DNA of 64,000 nucleotides from an uncultured Gemmatimonadota bacterium (lineage in GTDB: Bacteria > JAAXHH01), in the NCBI GenBank assembly GCA_951812955.1, contig OX638340.1:2304001-2368000 (forward strand), in the 5' to 3' direction. How positions within the stretch are numbered: position 1 is the stretch's first letter; every line of letters starts with the position of its first letter. Below are positions 5,170 to 46,535 of the stretch, piece after piece. The notes under the pieces were generated by a model, which did no database searches, had not been told where the DNA came from, and worked only from the letters and a program-made list of their open reading frames with translations. The translations under genes and the position numbers were made by a program.

Positions 5170-7541
5170 CTACTCGCTCCGCAGGGTGTCCGCCGGGTTG
5201 AGCATAGCGCTTCGGAAAGTATGCACGCTCACGGTGAGCAGGGCGGTGGCCAGGACAACTAGTCCCGCCGCGACGAAAGGCGCAGCACCGATCTCCGTCC
5301 GGTAGGCGAAGTCCGCCAGCCACTCGTTCATGAGCCACCAGGCGGCCGGCCAGGCCAGGACGTTGCCGATCACCACGAGGACGACGAACTGCCTCGACAG
5401 CAGGCCGACTATATCTGAGACCGCGGCGCCCATCACCTTGCGGATGCCGACTTCCCGCGTGCGGCGCGCGATGTCCAGCGACACGAGTCCATATACGCCG
5501 AGGCAGGCGATCAGCAGGGCGAATACCGCGGAATAGGTGAAAATCAGCGCCAGGTTGTTCTCATCCTGGTAGAACCGTTCTATATCGTCTTCCATGAAGA
5601 AATACTCGTAGGGCGTCTCAGGCGCTGTCCCCTTCCACGCGTCCTCGAGCAGGGAAAGCGTGGTTGGCAGATCCCTGCCGCTGACCCGGACCAGGAGGAA
5701 GCCGTAACTGACCGAAGTGTTACCCATGGATGTGGGATTGAGGGAGAGTATAATCGGATCGATCTCCTGGTGCAGCGACTGGAAATGGAAGTCCTTGACT
5801 ACGCCGATTACCGTATACCCATGGGGCAGTTTGCGCCCGATCGGATCTTCCCATTCCAGCTTCTTTGCCGCGGCCTCGTTGATGATGCACGATTGGAACT
5901 CGTCGTTTACGAATTCGCTGGAAAAATCACGGCCACGGACGAGGTTCAGTTCAAGCGTCTCCAGGTAATCGCGGTCCACGGTCGCCATGAACGCTTCCAG
6001 CTTGTTTCCGTCCGGTCGGTGTAGGCAACCTGGGGCAAGAAATGCCCCTGACCAAAGGTGCTGGAAGTGCCGGAAACCAGGAGTATGTCTTCGTACGGTA
6101 TCACTTTGCTGCGAAAGATCTCCAGGTCGTTTGAATTGAAGGGGGCCTGGATGACTACCACGTTGTGCGGGTTGAACCCCAAATCCCCCGTCCGCACAAA
6201 GTCCAGCTGCCGGGTCATGATGAGAATTGAAATGACGAGCAACGCGGACAACCCGAACTGCACGACCATCAAGCCGCGCACGAAGAGATTCGGCCCTCCG
6301 ATCTGAACCTGTTGCCGGAAGATGGTGACGGGGTTGTAGTGTGAGAGCACCAGGGAAGGATAACTGCCGGAAACCAGGGCGACCAGCACGGTCAAACCCG
6401 TCAGCGCGGCCAGCGTGGATCCGTTCGTCAGGTAGTCCAGCACGAGGGACTTTCCCGCCAGCATATTGAAAACCGGAAGGAACAGGTGGGCCAGGGCCAC
6501 GCTCAGCACCAGGGCGAAGCAGCACAGCGCCGCGGTTTCGCCCAAGTGCTGTCCCATGATCTGGGTTCGGCGCGCGCCGTAAACTTTCCTGACACCGACC
6601 TCTTTCACACGCGAAGACGAACGGCAGACGGCCAGGTTCATGAAGTTGACGCAGGCGATGAATAGTACGAGCAGCGCCGTGCAAATCAGGATGTAGGACC
6701 GGTTGGGATCGCTGGTGGGACCCAGCCCGAATTTGACTTCCTGATCCAGGTAGATATCGGTGATGGGTTGCAGGATCAGATAGGGCGACGAGTAGGCCGG
6801 GAAATGGGTTTCGACGAATTCCGGCAGTTGACTGAGGAGCGATTCTACTCGATCCGGATCCCCGAGTTCGATGAAAGTGGCCGTGGACGAATAGTTCCAC
6901 TTTCCGATGGCATTCGATATCCAGGGGTTTATTTCCGGCGCCTTGTCAAAGGGTATGAGCAGGTCGAACCGAATACTGGAGTTATCCGGTCCGTTCTCCG
7001 CGACGCCGGTTACGGTCAGCGGAATGCCCTGTACCAGGAGCGTCCTGCCCGTCGGAGACTCCTGGCCGAAGTACTTCGCCGCGGCGGATTTGCTGACGAC
7101 CACTGAATTCGCCTCGCCGAGGGCCGTACCGGGATCGCCTTCGATCATCGTGAAGGAGAACATCTCGAAGAAGGACGGATCGCAGAAAAGGGCGTTCTCC
7201 TTGCGGAACGTATCTTCTCCGATGCGAATATCGGATGGATATTCCGTTATGCGCACGGTCCGGACCACGTCGGGATATTGCTGCTCCAGGGTAGCCGCGA
7301 GCGGGAGGGGAGTTCTCGCGCTTATGAACGGGTTGTCGTCGAAATCCACTCCACCGGCTGCGACCTGGTAGATCCGGTCCGATTTCTCGTGGAAGGCGTC
7401 GTAGGTCCACTCGTGGCGGACGAAGAGAAAGATCAGGAGGCAGCACGCGATACCGGTCGACAGGCCAAAAGTATTGATGAAGAAATAACCCTTGTTGGCG
7501 AACAGGTACCGCAACGCGATGACGAGGTTGTTTTTCACCAT
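5170..7541 (-). pseudogene. Second copy of the FtsX/MacB-like ABC permease, apparently frameshifted (two overlapping ORFs 5946..7541 and 5170..6900)
   Basis: The N-terminal 531-aa ORF and the C-terminal 576-aa ORF together align to the 790-aa permease at 238..2610. The reading frame is lost around 6010-6030, where ...AYTDR(T)ETSW in this copy replaces AYTDKDGNKLE in copy 1, consistent with a 1-bp indel. This could be a genuine pseudogene or a sequencing error. Confidence 0.55.
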
Positions 7542-40148: not shown

Positions 40149-41549
40149 TTAAGCCCGTATCTTCTTAACCACTTCCCGGATGCTGTCCCGGAGCAGATCC
40201 AACATGAGGTCGGTCTCTTCCCGGCTGATAACGAGGGGCGGCGCCAGGGCGATCCAGCCAGGGTCGAAACGGGTCAGCAACCCCTTCTCCAGCGCGGTCT
40301 GCCCTACCTGCACGCCGAACTTCAGCGAAGGATCGAAAGGCACGCCAGTCTCGGAATCCTCGACGAATTCAATCCCGGCCAGCAGGCCGCAACCCCGGAT
40401 ATCGCCCACGATCCCCAGTTCCCGGAGGTCCTCCAGGCGCTCGCGGAGGTATGCCCCCTCCTCTCTCGCACGTGTACAGAGATCCCGTTCCTGGATCTCC
40501 GCCAGGTTCGCCAGGCCGGCCGCCGCGGCCAGCGGGTTTCCGCCGAAGGTATGGCCGTGAGAGAACTCGACCTCGTCTTCTTCCCGGCCGAGAAAGGCGG
40601 CGGCGATGGAATCCCGGAAGGCAATCCCGGCCAGGGGCACGTATCCGCTGGACATGCCCTTGCCCATGCACAGGATGTCGGGCGTCGCATCGAAGGTCTG
40701 GGCCGCGAACATGTTGCCCGTGCGGCCGAAACCGGTGATGATCTCATCGTAGATCAGGAGAATCTCGTGCCGGGTGCATATGTCCCTGAGCGTTGAGAGG
40801 TAGCCCGGCGGCGGCATGATGATGCCCCCGGTGTTCCCCACGGGTTCCAGGATGAGCGCCGCGATGGTCTCGGCTCCTTCCAGCTCGACCAGGTCCTCCA
40901 CCGTACGCGCGCAGAAGATCTCGCAATCCGGGAAAGTCTTTTCGTAGGGACATCGGAAACAGGTAGGGGGGTGGACGTGCAGGAAACCGTGCAGCGTGGG
41001 TTCGAACATGGTCTTGCGCCGGCGCGTGCCCGTGGCCGACAGGGCGCCCATCGTCGCGCCGTGGTACCCGTGAAAACGGGAGATCACCTTGAACTTGCCC
41101 GGGTTGCCGGTCTGCCGATGGTACTGCCGCGCCAGCTTCATGGCTGACTCGGTGGCCTCCGAACCGCCGGATAGCAACTTGATCGTGTTCAGGTCCTCCG
41201 GCGTGACTTCCGAGAGCCGCCGGACAAGCTCGATGGCCGGGGGGCTGGTGGCGTGGAGCGGAGGAGCGAAGGCCATGGTGTCCAGCTGCGCCTTGATCGC
41301 CTCGATGATCCGCCGGTTGCCGTGGCCGGCGTTTACGGTGAAGATGCCCGATATGCCGTCCAGGATCCGCCGCCCGTTTACATCCTCGTACCAGACCCCG
41401 TCCGCCTTCCGAATGACGAGGGGATCTTCGATGAAGGTCTCCATCTGGCGCAGGTCGAGGACCAGCCGCCGGAGGGATTCGGGCGCTGTGAGCAGTTGGG
41501 AATCCATGGCGCTTCTCTTGAAATCGGGCAGACCAGGGAACGCTTGCAA
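40149..41549 (-). CDS. Class III PLP aminotransferase (omega-aminotransferase family)
   Basis: 466 aa with ...GSEATESAMKLAR... and the ...DEIITGFGRTG... class III signature. Confidence 0.9.
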   Translation of the reverse strand: MQAFPGLPDFKRSAMDSQLLTAPESLRRLVLDLRQMETFIEDPLVIRKADGVWYEDVNGRRILDGISGIFTVNAGHGNRRIIEAIKAQLDTMAFAPPLHATSPPAIELVRRLSEVTPEDLNTIKLLSGGSEATESAMKLARQYHRQTGNPGKFKVISRFHGYHGATMGALSATGTRRRKTMFEPTLHGFLHVHPPTCFRCPYEKTFPDCEIFCARTVEDLVELEGAETIAALILEPVGNTGGIIMPPPGYLSTLRDICTRHEILLIYDEIITGFGRTGNMFAAQTFDATPDILCMGKGMSSGYVPLAGIAFRDSIAAAFLGREEDEVEFSHGHTFGGNPLAAAAGLANLAEIQERDLCTRAREEGAYLRERLEDLRELGIVGDIRGCGLLAGIEFVEDSETGVPFDPSLKFGVQVGQTALEKGLLTRFDPGWIALAPPLVISREETDLMLDLLRDSIREVVKKIRA

Positions 41550-41576
41550 AGGACGATCGGGGGAGACCGCCCGGCA

Positions 41577-41725
41577 TATGGCCGACGACTAGTACAGCCG
41601 GTCGATCACGACGTCCGCTCCGGAGTATGGCCGACGACTAGTACAGCCGGTCGATCACGACGTCCGCTCCGGAGTATGGCCGACGACTAGTACAGCCGGT
41701 CGATGACGACGTCCGCTCCGGATTC
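41577..41725. repeat. Three tandem 50-bp units, each encoding the last 11 codons plus stop (SGADVVIDRLY*) of the hypothetical secreted protein gene
   Basis: tatggccgacgactagtacagccggtcgatcacgacgtccgctccggag x2 nearly perfect. The third unit has c>g and is the true gene end. Confidence 0.85.
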
Positions 41726-42307
41726 TCCGATGACCACCCTAGGGATGACCCCTTCCATATCGCCGGCCTGCGGTACGCCGGCGTTTCCGTCCAAGTCGAT
41801 GCGCGCGACAATGGTGACTTCACCGGTGAAAGAAGGGCCCTGGACCGCCTGGTCCGCACCCGTCAGCGTGTACGGCATGGGAAACCGCAGGCTTCTGAAT
41901 CGCTTGACGGCAAGGGGCGGGCCGTTCTCGCCCCGTCTCGCCATGACGTACATGGTCTCCGAGCCTCTGAGCCGTGAGAAAAGTCCCGGCGTGATGTCGA
42001 TGGTTCCCGATACGCTTTCTCCGCTTACCGGGACTGCGGTGGGTTGTCCTTCCTCGAAGCTTCGGCCGGCTATCCGGCTGCCATCCATCGGCTGTTGCCG
42101 TTCCACGAAGGATCTGCCGGACGCCATTCCGCCGTCTTCGGGCAAGGGACGCAGGTTCTGATCGCATCCGCACCAGATCAGCAGGCCCAGCAATATCGAT
42201 TCAAGATGGAATTTGCGCATATTCAAATGGGATTCGACCGCCGGGAATACTCCGTTTTGCGGGTGTTTTTCGTCGTCCGAATACTCCGGATAGTCTAGGC
42301 GAACCAC
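41687..42307 (-). CDS. Hypothetical secreted protein
   Basis: N-terminal signal-like hydrophobic segment (LESILLGLLIWCGC). No recognisable domain. Confidence 0.45.
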   Translation of the reverse strand: MVRLDYPEYSDDEKHPQNGVFPAVESHLNMRKFHLESILLGLLIWCGCDQNLRPLPEDGGMASGRSFVERQQPMDGSRIAGRSFEEGQPTAVPVSGESVSGTIDITPGLFSRLRGSETMYVMARRGENGPPLAVKRFRSLRFPMPYTLTGADQAVQGPSFTGEVTIVARIDLDGNAGVPQAGDMEGVIPRVVIGESGADVVIDRLY

Positions 42308-42570
42308 CGGTTGTTGTCAACCTCTATGTACCTGTGCGCGGTAGAATAAAGTGCTTGACTAGACCCGTTGCGTAAATCTAACATGGAACTTCGTCGGCGG
42401 CTCCGTTCTCGGGGATCGGCCGGCACGATAGTTCAGGCAAGCGAAGCACGAGCGCACCACTCCTTTGCCGTGCCTGCCGCGGGTGGTATGGTCTCGCCAG
42501 ATTCCACCTTCTCTTTGCGATAAACCGGGTATTATACGCAACGGTTCCCCGGAACCAGGACGGAACAGTC

Positions 42571-43203
42571 ATGCCGCAGGGTACGATAACCAGGCTGAAC
42601 CACACCAGGGGATACGGATTCATCAACACGCCGGAGAACGAGGACCTGTTTTTTCATCGATCCAATATAATGGATGCGCAGTTTTCTCTATTGCAGGTCG
42701 GCGACCAGGTGACCTATACGGTTCAGTTCACTTCCCGCGGTCCACGGGCCGACCAGGTCCAGGTCGAGAGTCCGTCCGTGAAGCTCCAGGTCAACCTGGC
42801 CGTGAAGGACCTGCGTGTGTCCGCAGCATTCTACACCGAGACCTTCGATTTCAAGGAACTTTCTAACAATCCCGGCTATATCCTCCTTAAACGGAACGAT
42901 CTGATAATCGGATTGAAGACGGACGAACTGCTCTGGCATCCGGACCCTGGGGAACAGCCCGATGCGGCGCTCGTTCGGGGCGTGGGGGTCGAACTGGTCC
43001 TGGAAATCTCGGATATCGGCCAGTTTCACGCAAGGATGCAACAGGCCGGCGTGACCATACACGAACCGTTGAAAGAACAGCCGTGGGGCGCCACGGACTT
43101 CCGCATGCTGGATCCGGACGGGTACTACTGGCGGATCACGTCTCCCCGCGACCGCGATGTCGTCCACGCCGAAGAAGAACCGACGGAAGGTGAACCCGCG
43201 TGA
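42571..43203 (+). CDS. Cold-shock domain (CSD) fused to a glyoxalase/VOC-fold domain
   Basis: N-terminus [28 protein letters not shown] is a CspA-like RNP motif. The C-terminal ~130 aa have the VOC pattern (..[21 protein letters not shown].. then ..[10 protein letters not shown]). Confidence 0.7.
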
Positions 43204-43937
43204 GACTACTGGGAATCGATATCGGCGGATCGGGTATTAAGGGCGCGCCGGTCTGTCTGGAATCCGGGAAACTCGAGACGGAACGGTTCAGGATCGCGAC
43301 CCCCCAACCGGCCACCCCCGGTAAAGTCATCAAGACCGCGGCGGAAATCGTCCGGCACTTCGACCTCGAGGGTCCCGTGGGTTTCGGCTTTCCCGCGGTG
43401 ATCAAGAACGGCACGGTAAGGACCGCGGCGAACATCGACTCGTCCTGGATCGGCGTGAACGCGGCCGAACGCCTGGCGGAGGCAACGGGCCGTCCGGTCG
43501 TTCTCGTGAACGACGCCGATGCGGCGGGTATAGCGGAAATGCATTACGGCTCGGGCAGGGGCAGGGACGGCGTGGTGGTCATCGCGACCCTCGGAACCGG
43601 TATCGGAACCTCCCTGTTTGTCGACGGCAAGCTCGTGCCCAGCACGGAATTCGGCCACATCGAGATGAAAGGGCGCGTGGCGGAGAAATACGCCGCCGAC
43701 AGCGTGCGGAATGAGAAGCGGCTGGGCTGGCGGGAATGGGGCGGGCGCGTAAACGAGTACCTTTGCAAGCTGAACGAGCTGATCCGGCCGGACCTGATCA
43801 TCGTGGGCGGCGGCGCCAGCAACAAGTACGAAAAGTTTTCCCCGTGCTTCACCGTGGATACCGAGGTCGTACCCGCCCGGCTGAGAAACCAGGCCGGGAT
43901 CATCGGGGCGGCCCTGGCCGCGCAGACCGCCGCGTGA
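43200..43937 (+). CDS. ppgK: Polyphosphate glucokinase / ROK-family sugar kinase
   Basis: [17 protein letters not shown]-terminus. ...EFGHIEM... and the overall ~245-aa PPGK architecture. The start overlaps the upstream stop. Confidence 0.8.
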
Positions 43938-43964
43938 CCCGCGAGAACGACGAAAGCGCCGTAC

Positions 43965-44840
43965 ATGTCCATTCTCACCAAGTCGAAACTGTTTCCCCTG
44001 CTGCCCGACGGCGTCCGCGGACGCGTGACTGAGAAACACCGGCTTTCCCCGTCCGGCCGCCTTAAGAGCAGGAAACAGGCCGGAGAGTTCATCCTGGAAC
44101 GGTGTTTCGTTTCGGTATACTCCGGTACCGAACTTCCCAGTATCCAGGAGGCCATTGACGGCAGGACCGACCTTTCCGATCGCGGTGACCGGATAAGCAC
44201 GGGACAAGGCATCGCCAGCATCTGGATGGGCGACCTGACGGAAGCCGTACCCTGCCTTGTCGGCACGTTCGTGAAGCGAAAGCCCACGCTGGTCGCCCGA
44301 AAGCACTGGGCAGCGCTGCTGGCCATGGAACGGGAGGGTTTCAAGGGCGCCCGGGAACGCAACCGGATATCCCCGGCGGCATACCACCTGGCCGACTGCA
44401 TCGAACGAGACGGTCCGGCCACGGGTCAAACCCTCCGCGATCGACTCGCCGAATCCGTCCGCATGGACAGGCGGACATTCCGCAAGGCATTGCTGGAGCT
44501 CGAGAAACTGTGGTTGATCGTTCCCGGACGTATCGAAAGGAGCATGCACGACGCGGCTTCGTGCGTATGGGAGTTGACGAAGCGATGGGTGCCTGCCGAC
44601 ACGGCGAGGGAAGCCGTCTCCATGACCCGCCGTCACGCCATGCGCAGCCTGCTCCTGGGCGCCGTGGATTCCGCGGGGGCCGTCGACGAGAAGGCGGTCT
44701 ACAGCTGGTTCGGCTGGCCCCGGTCCATGACGGGCGTCCTCATGCAGGAAGCCCTGTCGGCGGAAGCGTGCTTCCGGGTAGCCGGCCCCAATCCCGTGAT
44801 CATTTCGAGTGACCTGGCCGAAATCTGGCCGGAAGCCTAG
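43965..44840 (+). CDS. Hypothetical protein (possibly winged-helix, AlkZ/YcaQ-like)
   Basis: No confident motif. Helical and basic. The assignment is speculative. Confidence 0.3.
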   Translation: MSILTKSKLFPLLPDGVRGRVTEKHRLSPSGRLKSRKQAGEFILERCFVSVYSGTELPSIQEAIDGRTDLSDRGDRISTGQGIASIWMGDLTEAVPCLVGTFVKRKPTLVARKHWAALLAMEREGFKGARERNRISPAAYHLADCIERDGPATGQTLRDRLAESVRMDRRTFRKALLELEKLWLIVPGRIERSMHDAASCVWELTKRWVPADTAREAVSMTRRHAMRSLLLGAVDSAGAVDEKAVYSWFGWPRSMTGVLMQEALSAEACFRVAGPNPVIISSDLAEIWPEA

Positions 44841-44964
44841 CACGGCTGGTCCGATCGGCGGCGGAACTTCCGCCCAGCCTACGGGGGAACGCCCGTCCGA
44901 CCGGCGGCGCATCCCCACGGCCAACCTGTGAGCCGAATCCCATCCCTAAGGAACCCGTCCCGAT

Positions 44965-45735
44965 ATGCGCCTATACCACGATGACGACCAGGCCCGGCTC
45001 TGGCTGGGCGACGCGCGCAGGATGGACCCGATCCCCGACGGGTGCGCCAGCCTGGTGCTGACGTGTCCGCCCTGGTGGGACGGCGGCGACTACGGCCACC
45101 CGGACCAGATCGGCTTCGGCCAGACCTATGCTGGGTTTCTAACCTCCCTCTCCGAGGTCTGGGCGCATTGCCGACGGTGCCTGATGCCCGGCAGGGCGAT
45201 GATCGTCTGGATCGCAGATCTGCTCTGGCGGGAAGAACCGGTCGCGCTTGTGGCGGACGCGCACCGCGGTCTCCAGGAGGCCGGGTTTCTGTACGAGGCG
45301 ACCTGGTACTGGTTCGATCCGCGGAAGGAAACGAGGAAGGAAGAGGCGGATGCCCGCGTGCCGCTCGGATGCCGGCCCAAGGCGCACGCCGAGACCATCC
45401 TGGTCTACCGTAAGCCTGGCGCCGCCGAAACGCCCGCACCCGGCGTCATACAAAAAAGCCGCGTACCCGCGGAAGAATGGCGGGCGGGCCGCCAGGCCGT
45501 ATGGATGCCCGACGAGAACCTGGAACCCCCATACCAACGCCTGATTCGCCTCTGGTCATACGCGGGAGAAACGGTCCTGGATCCCTTTGCCGGGCAGGGC
45601 ATGATCGCGCTGGCGGCGCGTGCGCTCGAGCGCCGCAGCATCTCCGTGGAACTGAATTCCGATTCCTGCCGGCAGATCGTCTCGCTCCTCGCGGAGCCTC
45701 ACATGCCGTGTTCGTCCAGCAGCCGCCGCAGGTAG
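44965..45735 (+). CDS. DNA methyltransferase, N4/N6 family (beta-class order: motif IV then motif I); atypical CPPW catalytic motif
   Basis: SLVLTCPPWW lies where (D/S)PPY sits in the N6_N4_Mtase family. The C-terminal SAM motif is VLDPFAGQGMIALAA. No restriction endonuclease was recognised nearby. Confidence 0.7.
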   Translation: MRLYHDDDQARLWLGDARRMDPIPDGCASLVLTCPPWWDGGDYGHPDQIGFGQTYAGFLTSLSEVWAHCRRCLMPGRAMIVWIADLLWREEPVALVADAHRGLQEAGFLYEATWYWFDPRKETRKEEADARVPLGCRPKAHAETILVYRKPGAAETPAPGVIQKSRVPAEEWRAGRQAVWMPDENLEPPYQRLIRLWSYAGETVLDPFAGQGMIALAARALERRSISVELNSDSCRQIVSLLAEPHMPCSSSSRRR

Positions 45736-46535
45736 GCGACGGCCTTGGGTACCGCCGTCTCCTCGGCTTCAACGTCCTGCCCTTCGTAAACGACCGACAT
45801 CCAGCCATTGAAACCGACCTGCTTCAGGATCCCGAGAATGCGTGGATAGTCCAGCCACGCTTCCTCGCCGGACTGGACGCGGTAGAACTTCGCCCGGACG
45901 TGCGCGGCGTGCGGCGCGCTTTTCTCCATACTTCCGTAGAAATCGTATGCGGGATCGGGATTGCCTCTCGCTCCCGATGCGCCCGGTGACCCGGCGTACT
46001 GGCCCGTGTCCAGTATATGGGTGAAGGAAGGGTGGTTCACTTCGGTGAGAATCCGCACAACGTCATCGCCCGTGCGGGTCACGCACCCGTGGTTGTGGTT
46101 GTGCAGTCCCACGGCGACGCCCCGGGCGGCCCCGTGGGCGACGACCTCCGAAATCGCGTGGATCATGCGGGTCCACGTAACGTCGGCGGGCGTATCGTCC
46201 CGGTCCCACGCGGCGAAGATGCGCACCATCGGCACGTGCATACGCGCGGCCACGTCGATCCAGTGGTTGACCATCCCGATCTCTTCGGCGATCTCACCGG
46301 CCGGCTTTCCGAAGTTGTTGCTGATGCCGAGGTAGGAGATGGCCAGCCCCCGCTGCAGGCATCGCATGCGCACGTCCCCCAGGTACGCGTCGTCTTCCGA
46401 CGCCAGCGCCCGGGTATGGATGTCGATCCCGTCGAGTTCCATTTCCCGGGCGCGGTCGATGAAGTCGAAAAGGTCCATGCGGCCTTCCGAAATGGCGTGA
46501 CCATAGCTTAAGGACATGCAACCGAGTTTAATCAC
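45699..46535 (-). CDS. Sugar phosphate isomerase/epimerase (xylose isomerase-like TIM barrel)
   Basis: AP_endonuc_2/xylose-isomerase-like TIM pattern with conserved His/Glu/Asp positions (..LHNHNHG.., ..HILDTGQ..). Confidence 0.75.
   Translation of the reverse strand: MIKLGCMSLSYGHAISEGRMDLFDFIDRAREMELDGIDIHTRALASEDDAYLGDVRMRCLQRGLAISYLGISNNFGKPAGEIAEEIGMVNHWIDVAARMHVPMVRIFAAWDRDDTPADVTWTRMIHAISEVVAHGAARGVAVGLHNHNHGCVTRTGDDVVRILTEVNHPSFTHILDTGQYAGSPGASGARGNPDPAYDFYGSMEKSAPHAAHVRAKFYRVQSGEEAWLDYPRILGILKQVGFNGWMSVVYEGQDVEAEETAVPKAVAYLRRLLDEHGM

Follow-up and report, generated by a model that had tools for sequence, protein, structure and literature searches.

The DNA considered here (the window) is a stretch of 64,000 nucleotides from contig OX638340.1 of an uncultured Gemmatimonadota bacterium, and the subject of this report is one plus-strand gene within it, in which two domains that are seldom seen together share a single polypeptide. 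Cold-shock domains (CSDs) in bacteria almost always stand alone, and VOC domains are almost always small-molecule enzymes or drug binders. What, then, is a cell doing with a protein that is both? The gene and its parts are as follows.

42571..43203, plus strand: coding sequence of the CSD-VOC fusion, 210 amino acids, ATG start, no internal stops
42577..42768, plus strand: CSD, residues 3-66 (from PF00313, the CspB/CspLA alignment, the modelled strands and the ratio of nonsynonymous to synonymous substitution rates, dN/dS)
42787..43143, plus strand: VOC (glyoxalase/bleomycin-resistance fold) domain, residues 73-191, canonical metal site absent
43150..43200, plus strand: disordered acidic C-terminal tail, residues 194-210 (from the predicted local distance difference test, pLDDT, the net charge and dN/dS)

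The ATG follows an AGGA Shine-Dalgarno sequence (42557-42560), and both domains pass their Pfam gathering cut-offs: residues 3-64 match PF00313 (CSD) at 56.6 bits (cut-off 27) and residues 73-188 match PF00903 (Glyoxalase/VOC) at 55.6 bits (cut-off 20.6), with Glyoxalase_2 above its cut-off as well (35.2 versus 30.1 bits). An earlier note on this DNA had proposed such a single-gene fusion, and these matches, together with the unbroken open reading frame (ORF), bear it out. The profile searches support the VOC assignment on which the proposal hung, the motifs that the note had named are present (GYGFI at residues 14-18, FFHRS at 27-31) and no frameshift or unrecognised stop divides the gene, since both domains lie within one stop-to-stop ORF in 37 of 37 related loci, drawn from 26 species-level genomes. 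Could an assembly or sequencing error nonetheless have joined two separate genes? Almost certainly not: the 37 loci are independent and come from many assemblies, closed chromosomes among them, the length of the protein and its linker are conserved and the single ORF at every locus refutes the idea of an artefact.

Structure prediction gives the fold that the earlier note expected. An AlphaFold2 model made with 76 sequences (mean pLDDT 85.5, predicted template-modelling score, pTM, 0.63) has a five-strand antiparallel OB-like barrel at residues 3-66, a short linker and then two paired beta-alpha-beta-beta-beta modules (residues 73-116 and 141-190). Toward the C terminus, the pLDDT falls to a block mean of 64 over residues 191-200 and 44 over residues 201-210 and is below 50 at residues 199-209; this tail is acidic in 19 of 20 members (net charge -2 to -11, with 0 in the remaining one) and varies in length and sequence. 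The G+C content of the fusion gene, about 0.57-0.59, is below that of its neighbours (0.62-0.68), a difference that high expression, through codon usage, or an ancient acquisition from elsewhere could explain.

The combination is as unusual as the earlier note had supposed. In an exhaustive HMMER search of 1.84 billion representatives at 50% identity, just one, cluster P0042, carries both domains at full length, and the remaining matches are multi-CSD proteins or stand-alone VOC proteins, apart from P0058, in which a Peptidase_M23 domain, a partial CSD and a VOC domain share a 1.7-kb contig and which we rejected as a second fusion because an assembly chimera is the likelier explanation. Among 5.8 billion proteins, 57 clusters (at 90% identity) have the CSD+VOC architecture, with lengths of 204-238 amino acids and 55-99% identity to the window protein, and a scan of one genome per species found the full-length fusion in 26 genomes (our loci L012-L037). 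One of these, L012 (OY762445.1, a 3.9-Mb chromosome that is a metagenome-assembled genome, or MAG), encodes a 100% identical protein in slightly different DNA. Two further candidates for an independent fusion were rejected: L048 (Chloroflexota) proved to be a stand-alone VOC protein adjoining a quinone oxidoreductase, and L084 has a CSD only. A "Rosetta stone" check of 39 stand-alone csp genes from other phyla, chosen for the same LFFHRS motif, found no VOC gene of the same subfamily within 6 kb, and no further csp gene was found in the 64-kb window or in the 6-kb flanks of the loci. Our search of the literature for this architecture, or for the cold-shock proteins of this lineage, found no description of either.

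Gene order around the fusion is common to all fusion loci, and we therefore treat them as one lineage with vertical inheritance. The MAGs concerned are labelled Latescibacterota, Gemmatimonadota, Zixibacteria or plain "bacterium," and the isolate or sample names of several suggest a sponge, coral, marine or groundwater origin. Within this lineage, pairwise dN/dS across 13 genomes is 0.095 for the CSD and 0.14 for the VOC domain, so that both are under purifying selection, and 0.34 for the tail.

The CSD aligns without gaps, over about 64 residues, to the Bacillus CspB-type and Listeria CspLA proteins, and residue numbering is therefore common with these Csps. The residues of Bs-CspB that we take to contact single-stranded DNA in its oligo-dT structures (K7, W8, K13, F15, F17, F27, H29, F30, F38 and R56) correspond, in that order, to T7, R8, R13, Y15, F17, F27, H29, R30, F38 and R56 of the window protein. 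The binding face thus differs from that of CspB by W8 to R, F30 to R and K7 to T and keeps R13, Y15, F17, F27, H29, F38 and R56. Across the fusion family, R13, H29 and R56 are invariant, R8, F17, F27, R30 and F38 are nearly so and position 15 is Y or F. Judged by this alignment, the face is largely kept despite two aromatic-to-arginine changes, and it is reasonable to expect that the domain binds nucleic acid.

The description of the domain as a canonical CspA-type CSD is, accordingly, right in its RNP motifs and its PF00313 match and too generous in one respect, which is that arginine occupies positions 8 and 30. With the major bacterial Csps (E. coli CspA, Bacillus CspB and the PF00313 family at large), the domain shares the five-strand OB-type barrel, RNP1 (GYGFI), the RNP2-like motif (FFHRS) and most of the base-stacking residues. 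Unlike them, it has Arg in place of W8 and F30, is only about 25-47% identical to any stand-alone Csp and carries a C-terminal extension of 145 amino acids. The named Csp models of NCBIfam (CspA/C/D/E/G) all score below cut-off, the best being CspE at 45.1 versus 120 bits. A search for stand-alone Csps with the CSD alone gave three matches at 44-47% identity; it is uninformative, because it did not recover the fusion family itself.

The VOC domain poses the harder question, and the place to begin is the usual metal site. The earlier note had offered a nucleic-acid-tethered metalloenzyme as one meaning of the fusion, and had pointed to the conservation of the metal-binding His and Glu residues as the check. 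On that reading, the VOC domain would carry out metal-dependent catalysis at or close to RNA or DNA. The canonical ligand set is not conserved. In an hhalign alignment with a hand-entered sequence of E. coli GloA (probability 96%; its register agrees with the coordinates of 1f9z), metal ligands H5, H74 and E122 fall on Q73, E141 and R188, respectively, and the fourth, E56, falls at about G114, a position placed by strand register only. The alignment thus leaves E141 as the sole possible survivor of the four canonical VOC metal ligands, and an arginine fills one of the positions, for which reasons we disfavour the metalloenzyme. What the fusion has in common with glyoxalase I and FosA is the superfamily fold; what sets it apart is the replacement of three of four metal ligands (Q73, about G114 and R188). 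The NCBIfam metalloenzyme models agree, with bit scores far below their cut-offs: 20.1 against 165 for GloA, 16.5 against 120 for glyox_I, 20.5 against 275 for FosA and 18.9 against 116 for ArsI/CadI. The invariant acidic residues E141, E145 and D176 might conceivably hold a hard metal somewhere other than the canonical site, and the fold itself would suit such an enzyme, but E141 is the only ligand-capable residue left at the canonical positions, and the Arg directed into the site makes it unfavourable for a cation. We regard a metal-dependent enzyme as very improbable.

If not a metal, then what? With a profile built from the VOC domain and its stand-alone relatives, the closest solved sequences are Atu1872 (2qnt), TnmS1 (5umq/5uhj; an enediyne-binding protein), 2rk9, 3vcx and TioX (3itw), and the bleomycin-binding proteins and glyoxalase I score more weakly than the Atu1872/TnmS1/TioX group. 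The NCBIfam models for bleomycin-binding proteins (BLMA/BLMT/BleO) are far below cut-off as well (17.1 of 275, 15.8 of 210 and 12.4 of 140 bits), and the resemblance to these proteins is one of fold and motif only. Taken as a class, the small VOC binding and resistance proteins (BLMA/BLMT/Sh Ble, TioX, TnmS1-3, the mitomycin-binding MRD, 3vcx and 2qnt) provide the best matches in both sequence and fold, and they share with the fusion the paired-module fold, a similar size and the absence of the canonical metal site. The fusion differs from them in its CSD and in a strongly conserved set of charged residues (E141, E145, D176, R178 and R188), and identity to them is only 20-25%.

A comparison of 33 fusion proteins with 43 stand-alone VOC relatives (32-42% identity) shows where the constraint lies. 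Invariant in both sets are G139, E141, E145, W172, D176, R178, D181, G184 and R188, all in the second module, with E141, E145, W172, D176, R178 and R188 on its strands. The first strand differs from that of the stand-alone relatives by two changes, R to Q73 and F to A77, that became fixed in the fusion family; N75 of the fusion family aligns opposite a nearly invariant Glu of those relatives, and a conserved loop motif of the VOC domain is specific to the fusion proteins. Second-module invariance and a fixed first-strand switch together argue, at the level of sequence, that the domain has a working pocket, reshaped at the time of the fusion, and is not a bare scaffold. The domain is acidic (isoelectric point about 5), and nucleic-acid binding of its own is therefore unlikely. 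Both component domains are well known, and the protein already appears in databases, under the names "hypothetical" or "cold shock domain-containing". The novelty lies in the way that the two are combined, in the confinement of this architecture to a single uncultured lineage, in how strongly it is conserved and in a VOC pocket that has been remodelled and is free of metal.

The scaffold deserves its hearing all the same. Small VOC proteins are typically homodimers, and the VOC domain might do nothing but dimerise, binding no ligand and making an ordinary Csp bivalent in the manner of dimeric CspD. Many of the PDB entries that we matched contain two chains, the canonical metal site has been lost and we can name no ligand for the VOC domain. 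All of that would suit a scaffold. Much less suited to it are the residues invariant in fused and stand-alone relatives alike on strands that line the pocket, the fixed and family-specific remodelling of the first strand and a dN/dS of 0.14 over the whole domain, which is more constraint than a scaffold needs. We think this explanation unlikely, if not greatly so.

The stand-alone relatives themselves (about 136 amino acids, with an invariant R-x-E...E-x-x-x-E...D-x-R...R pattern) form an uncharacterised subfamily. They adjoin major facilitator superfamily transporter genes in Solirubrobacteraceae (L042, L043) and genes for Zn-dependent dehydrogenases of the quinone-oxidoreductase type in Anaerolineae (L044-L046, L048), and those of Alteribacter adjoin other VOC genes and DUF899 genes. 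One VOC relative is fused to a GNAT domain in the layout of a bleomycin acetyltransferase. By analogy, these neighbours and the GNAT fusion point weakly to the handling of small molecules or xenobiotics. BAT (2zw4), which combines a GNAT domain with a VOC-like domain, differs from our protein in that the partner domain of BAT is an enzyme and that of the fusion is a CSD, of the nucleic-acid-binder type.

Upstream of the gene lie the following features.

42292..42320, minus strand: divergent sigma-70-like promoter, TTGACA-17-TAGACT, of an Ig_CycH-domain gene (promoter scan, 10 of 12 matches)
42325..42334, plus strand: TATGTACCTG motif, a candidate operator, between the two promoters and in tandem copies in relatives
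42355..42384, plus strand: fusion-gene promoter, TTGACT-18-TAACAT (promoter scan, 9 of 12 matches)
42391..42570, plus strand: putative 5' leader of about 180 nucleotides (nt) with three hairpins (from the promoter position and RNAalifold)

These two promoters are the only sigma-70-like sites that the scan found in 2.8 kb. The TTGACT at 42355-42360, which the earlier note had singled out as a -35-like element, is indeed the -35 of a promoter conserved in the family, and a long leader (about 180 nt) is likely to follow it: CTTGACT is kept in 18 of 19 aligned loci, and in the exception, L034, the aligner set other sequence there, yet TTGACT is present at -108. At the minus-strand promoter, TTGTCAA is invariant and TAGTNTAG is nearly invariant across the family. 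That promoter is kept though the gene facing it varies (the Ig_CycH gene here, a metallo-beta-lactamase-fold gene or a GFO/IDH/MocA oxidoreductase gene elsewhere), and its conservation despite the differing neighbour is why we treat the two as a pair of divergent promoters. The upstream gap of about 260 bp in the earlier note holds when measured against the longest possible minus-strand ORF (263 bp, 42308-42570); that ORF, at 41687-42307 (206 amino acids, GTG at 42307), overlaps its own predicted promoter. Judging from a 174-amino-acid homologue in L001, the real minus-strand start is probably the ATG at 42220 (177 amino acids), and in that case, the true intergenic region is about 350 bp.

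Between the promoters sits a motif, TATGTACCYG (11-13 nt), in one to four tandem copies depending on the genome. In L024, the array spans 5708-5738 (TGTACCCGCTG), and in L013, L015, L017, L019 and L028, the motif lies around 5720-5756. Within the 12-kb loci of the window-clade genomes, it is confined to this spacer; in the distant clades, L005, L008 and L031 each match it once, some 800 bp ahead of the fusion gene. We propose the motif as a candidate operator, at which one regulator could act on both promoters.

Counted from the transcription start that we infer for the plus-strand promoter, the leader would be about 180 nt long. The leader is conserved in 18 genomes of the window's clade, for which RNAalifold predicts hairpins at 42393-42424, 42434-42476 and 42543-42556, the third directly adjoining the AGGA Shine-Dalgarno. 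Support for this structure is moderate. In its favour, 94.7% of cells are paired, there are 9 two-sided pair changes versus 1.9 in shuffles and versions with slid partners are clearly worse; against it, the minimum free energy is no better than that of shuffled sequence (z = -0.49).

Is this, then, the kind of long regulatory leader that csp genes are known for, as the earlier note suggested? In length and in some of its structure, it is. Like the thermosensor in the 5' untranslated region of E. coli cspA mRNA, it precedes a CSD gene, is long (about 160-180 nt) and is predicted to form hairpins close to the ribosome-binding site. The likeness goes no further: none of 4227 Rfam families, the cspA thermoregulator included, matches 41500-43500 at E <= 10, no sequence similarity to the cspA leader was detected and the leader of the fusion belongs to one clade, being only about 55-115 nt in distant clades. 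Within the window's clade, moreover, one genome has lost much of it. L025 (OZ253560.1, 5900-6000) has a natural deletion of about 115 nt from the central leader that leaves the coding sequence intact and brings the -35 to -99 from the usual position of about -215; the leader is thus dispensable there, and the deletion is a natural control for any function that the leader might have.

Two genes follow on the same strand.

43200..43937, plus strand: polyphosphate-glucose phosphotransferase gene, ppgK (NCBIfam NF045942, 324.7 versus 250 bits)
43965..44840, plus strand: gene for an AlkZ-related winged-helix protein, 291 amino acids (PF24741, 48.6 bits)

In the window, the GTG start of ppgK overlaps the stop of the fusion gene (GTGA); all 37 loci have ppgK downstream in the same orientation, and no plus-strand terminator is predicted in 42571-44950. 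In distant clades, an unannotated gene of about 290 amino acids stands between the two (L007 6690-7565, L008 6752-7621 and L010 6694-7584). We considered whether it was an AlkZ-related protein and rejected the idea, for it is unrelated and has only a weak CBM9-like match. The AlkZ-related gene itself begins a cluster (43965-46535) that continues with an N6/N4 DNA methyltransferase, which no identified restriction enzyme adjoins, and then with a convergent gene for a xylose-isomerase-like TIM-barrel protein (AP_endonuc_2). The cluster is kept in most genomes of the clade, with L022 and L036 lacking the AlkZ-related gene only, and it may be a module for DNA repair or modification. A reading of the neighbourhood as a defence system was set aside, PADLOC having given only a generic CSD_V match and, among the neighbours, just a Type II methyltransferase. 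All members belong to one lineage in which gene order is conserved, and the links to neighbours are for this reason inseparable from simple inheritance.

The AlkZ-related gene brings us to the most colourful of the explanations, which is protection from genotoxins or repair of what they do: the VOC domain would capture a natural product that damages DNA, or the adduct that it forms, and the CSD would position the protein on single-stranded nucleic acid, so that the toxin is sequestered at its target or lesions are recognised and cut, perhaps together with the AlkZ-related protein. The precedent is AziN of Streptomyces sahachiroi, a VOC-superfamily protein that is encoded near alkZ, binds azinomycin B and cuts crosslinked DNA without needing a metal (PMC7145581). 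AziN has no DNA-binding domain, is brought to DNA by the bound drug and was assigned to Glyoxalase_6 (PMC7145581). Compared by description only, the fusion is like AziN in being a VOC-superfamily protein near an AlkZ-family gene, and AziN acts at nucleic acid independently of metal; it is unlike AziN in having a CSD, where AziN reaches DNA through the drug, and in having no Glyoxalase_6 match. (PF18029, the Glyoxalase_6 profile, gave no match in the fusion protein at E <= 1, and some of the stand-alone relatives carry it.)

There is more to be said for a genotoxin than this one precedent. The solved relatives of the VOC domain include TnmS1, TioX and the bleomycin-binding proteins, the AlkZ-related gene follows ppgK in most loci and sponge or coral appears in the MAG labels of many source genomes. 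Each of these points has its answer. No specific homology to AziN came to light in the comparison by description and by the Glyoxalase_6 profile, and the bleomycin-binding-protein models score far below their cut-offs. Seven species-level genomes keep the fusion and lack the AlkZ-related gene (L022, L036, L005/L031, L007, L008, L032 and L033), and inherited gene order explains the neighbourhood equally well. The drug crevices of bleomycin-binding proteins are poorly conserved, and the charged pocket residues of the fusion are, quite unlike them, strongly invariant. We judge a role against genotoxins to be distinctly unlikely. Longer still are the chances of its most specific form, in which the CSD would recruit the VOC domain to single-stranded nucleic acid in order to recognise, shield or process adducted RNA or DNA in the metal-independent way of AziN, with the AlkZ-related protein as its companion; if it were true, the fusion would be the first example of a VOC protein that brings its own nucleic-acid-targeting domain, here in a genotoxin-exposed lineage of symbionts.

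The explanation that we favour, tentatively and at a little short of an even chance, is a plainer one: the protein would be a Csp-like binder of single-stranded nucleic acid that carries a metal-free, small-molecule-binding and probably dimerising VOC domain, its gene being expressed along with ppgK from a strong promoter that is followed by a structured leader. This comes near to the other option of the earlier note, a plausible one, in which the VOC domain is a ligand-sensing module that would control RNA-chaperone activity. Transcription would start at the strong sigma-70-type promoter, run through a structured leader of about 180 nt, the last hairpin of which lies at the ribosome-binding site, and probably continue into ppgK. 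The N-terminal CSD, on the evidence of its binding face, would bind single-stranded RNA or DNA. The C-terminal VOC domain would be a small-molecule-binding module akin to the uncharacterised VOC proteins and the antibiotic binders and not a metalloenzyme of the glyoxalase I or FosA type, and if it forms a homodimer, as other single-domain VOC proteins do and as this one probably does, then each protein would present two CSDs. The acidic disordered tail might, speculatively, act as a competitor of nucleic acid at the CSD or bring in partner proteins. The role of the whole would be that of a Csp-like nucleic-acid chaperone or regulator, with its activity or its location coupled to the ligand in the VOC pocket. 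Of all this, the architecture and its conservation, the fold, the loss of the canonical metal site and the promoter are shown by the analysis, and the binding of nucleic acid and of a ligand, the dimer and any regulation through the leader are inferred from it.

Several things weigh against this explanation. The invariant charged residues of the VOC domain could be a buried network of salt bridges that replaced the metal and serves a purely structural purpose. The pTM of 0.63 means that, in the model, the relative orientation of CSD and VOC domain is undefined. Conserved in one clade and deleted in L025, the leader is not essential to the family. As for ppgK, the link may be inherited and not functional, in one lineage with conserved gene order, and in distant clades, the CBM9-like gene separates it from the fusion.

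That purifying selection maintains a fusion of these two domains implies that a bound small molecule and single-stranded nucleic acid are directly linked in function. The link might take the form of an RNA chaperone under the control of a ligand or of the protection of nucleic acid from reactive metabolites. The protein is small and soluble-looking and would be readily expressed. For an uncultured lineage, with many of its genomes from sponge or coral samples, it is one of the few concrete, testable leads into the biology of stress.

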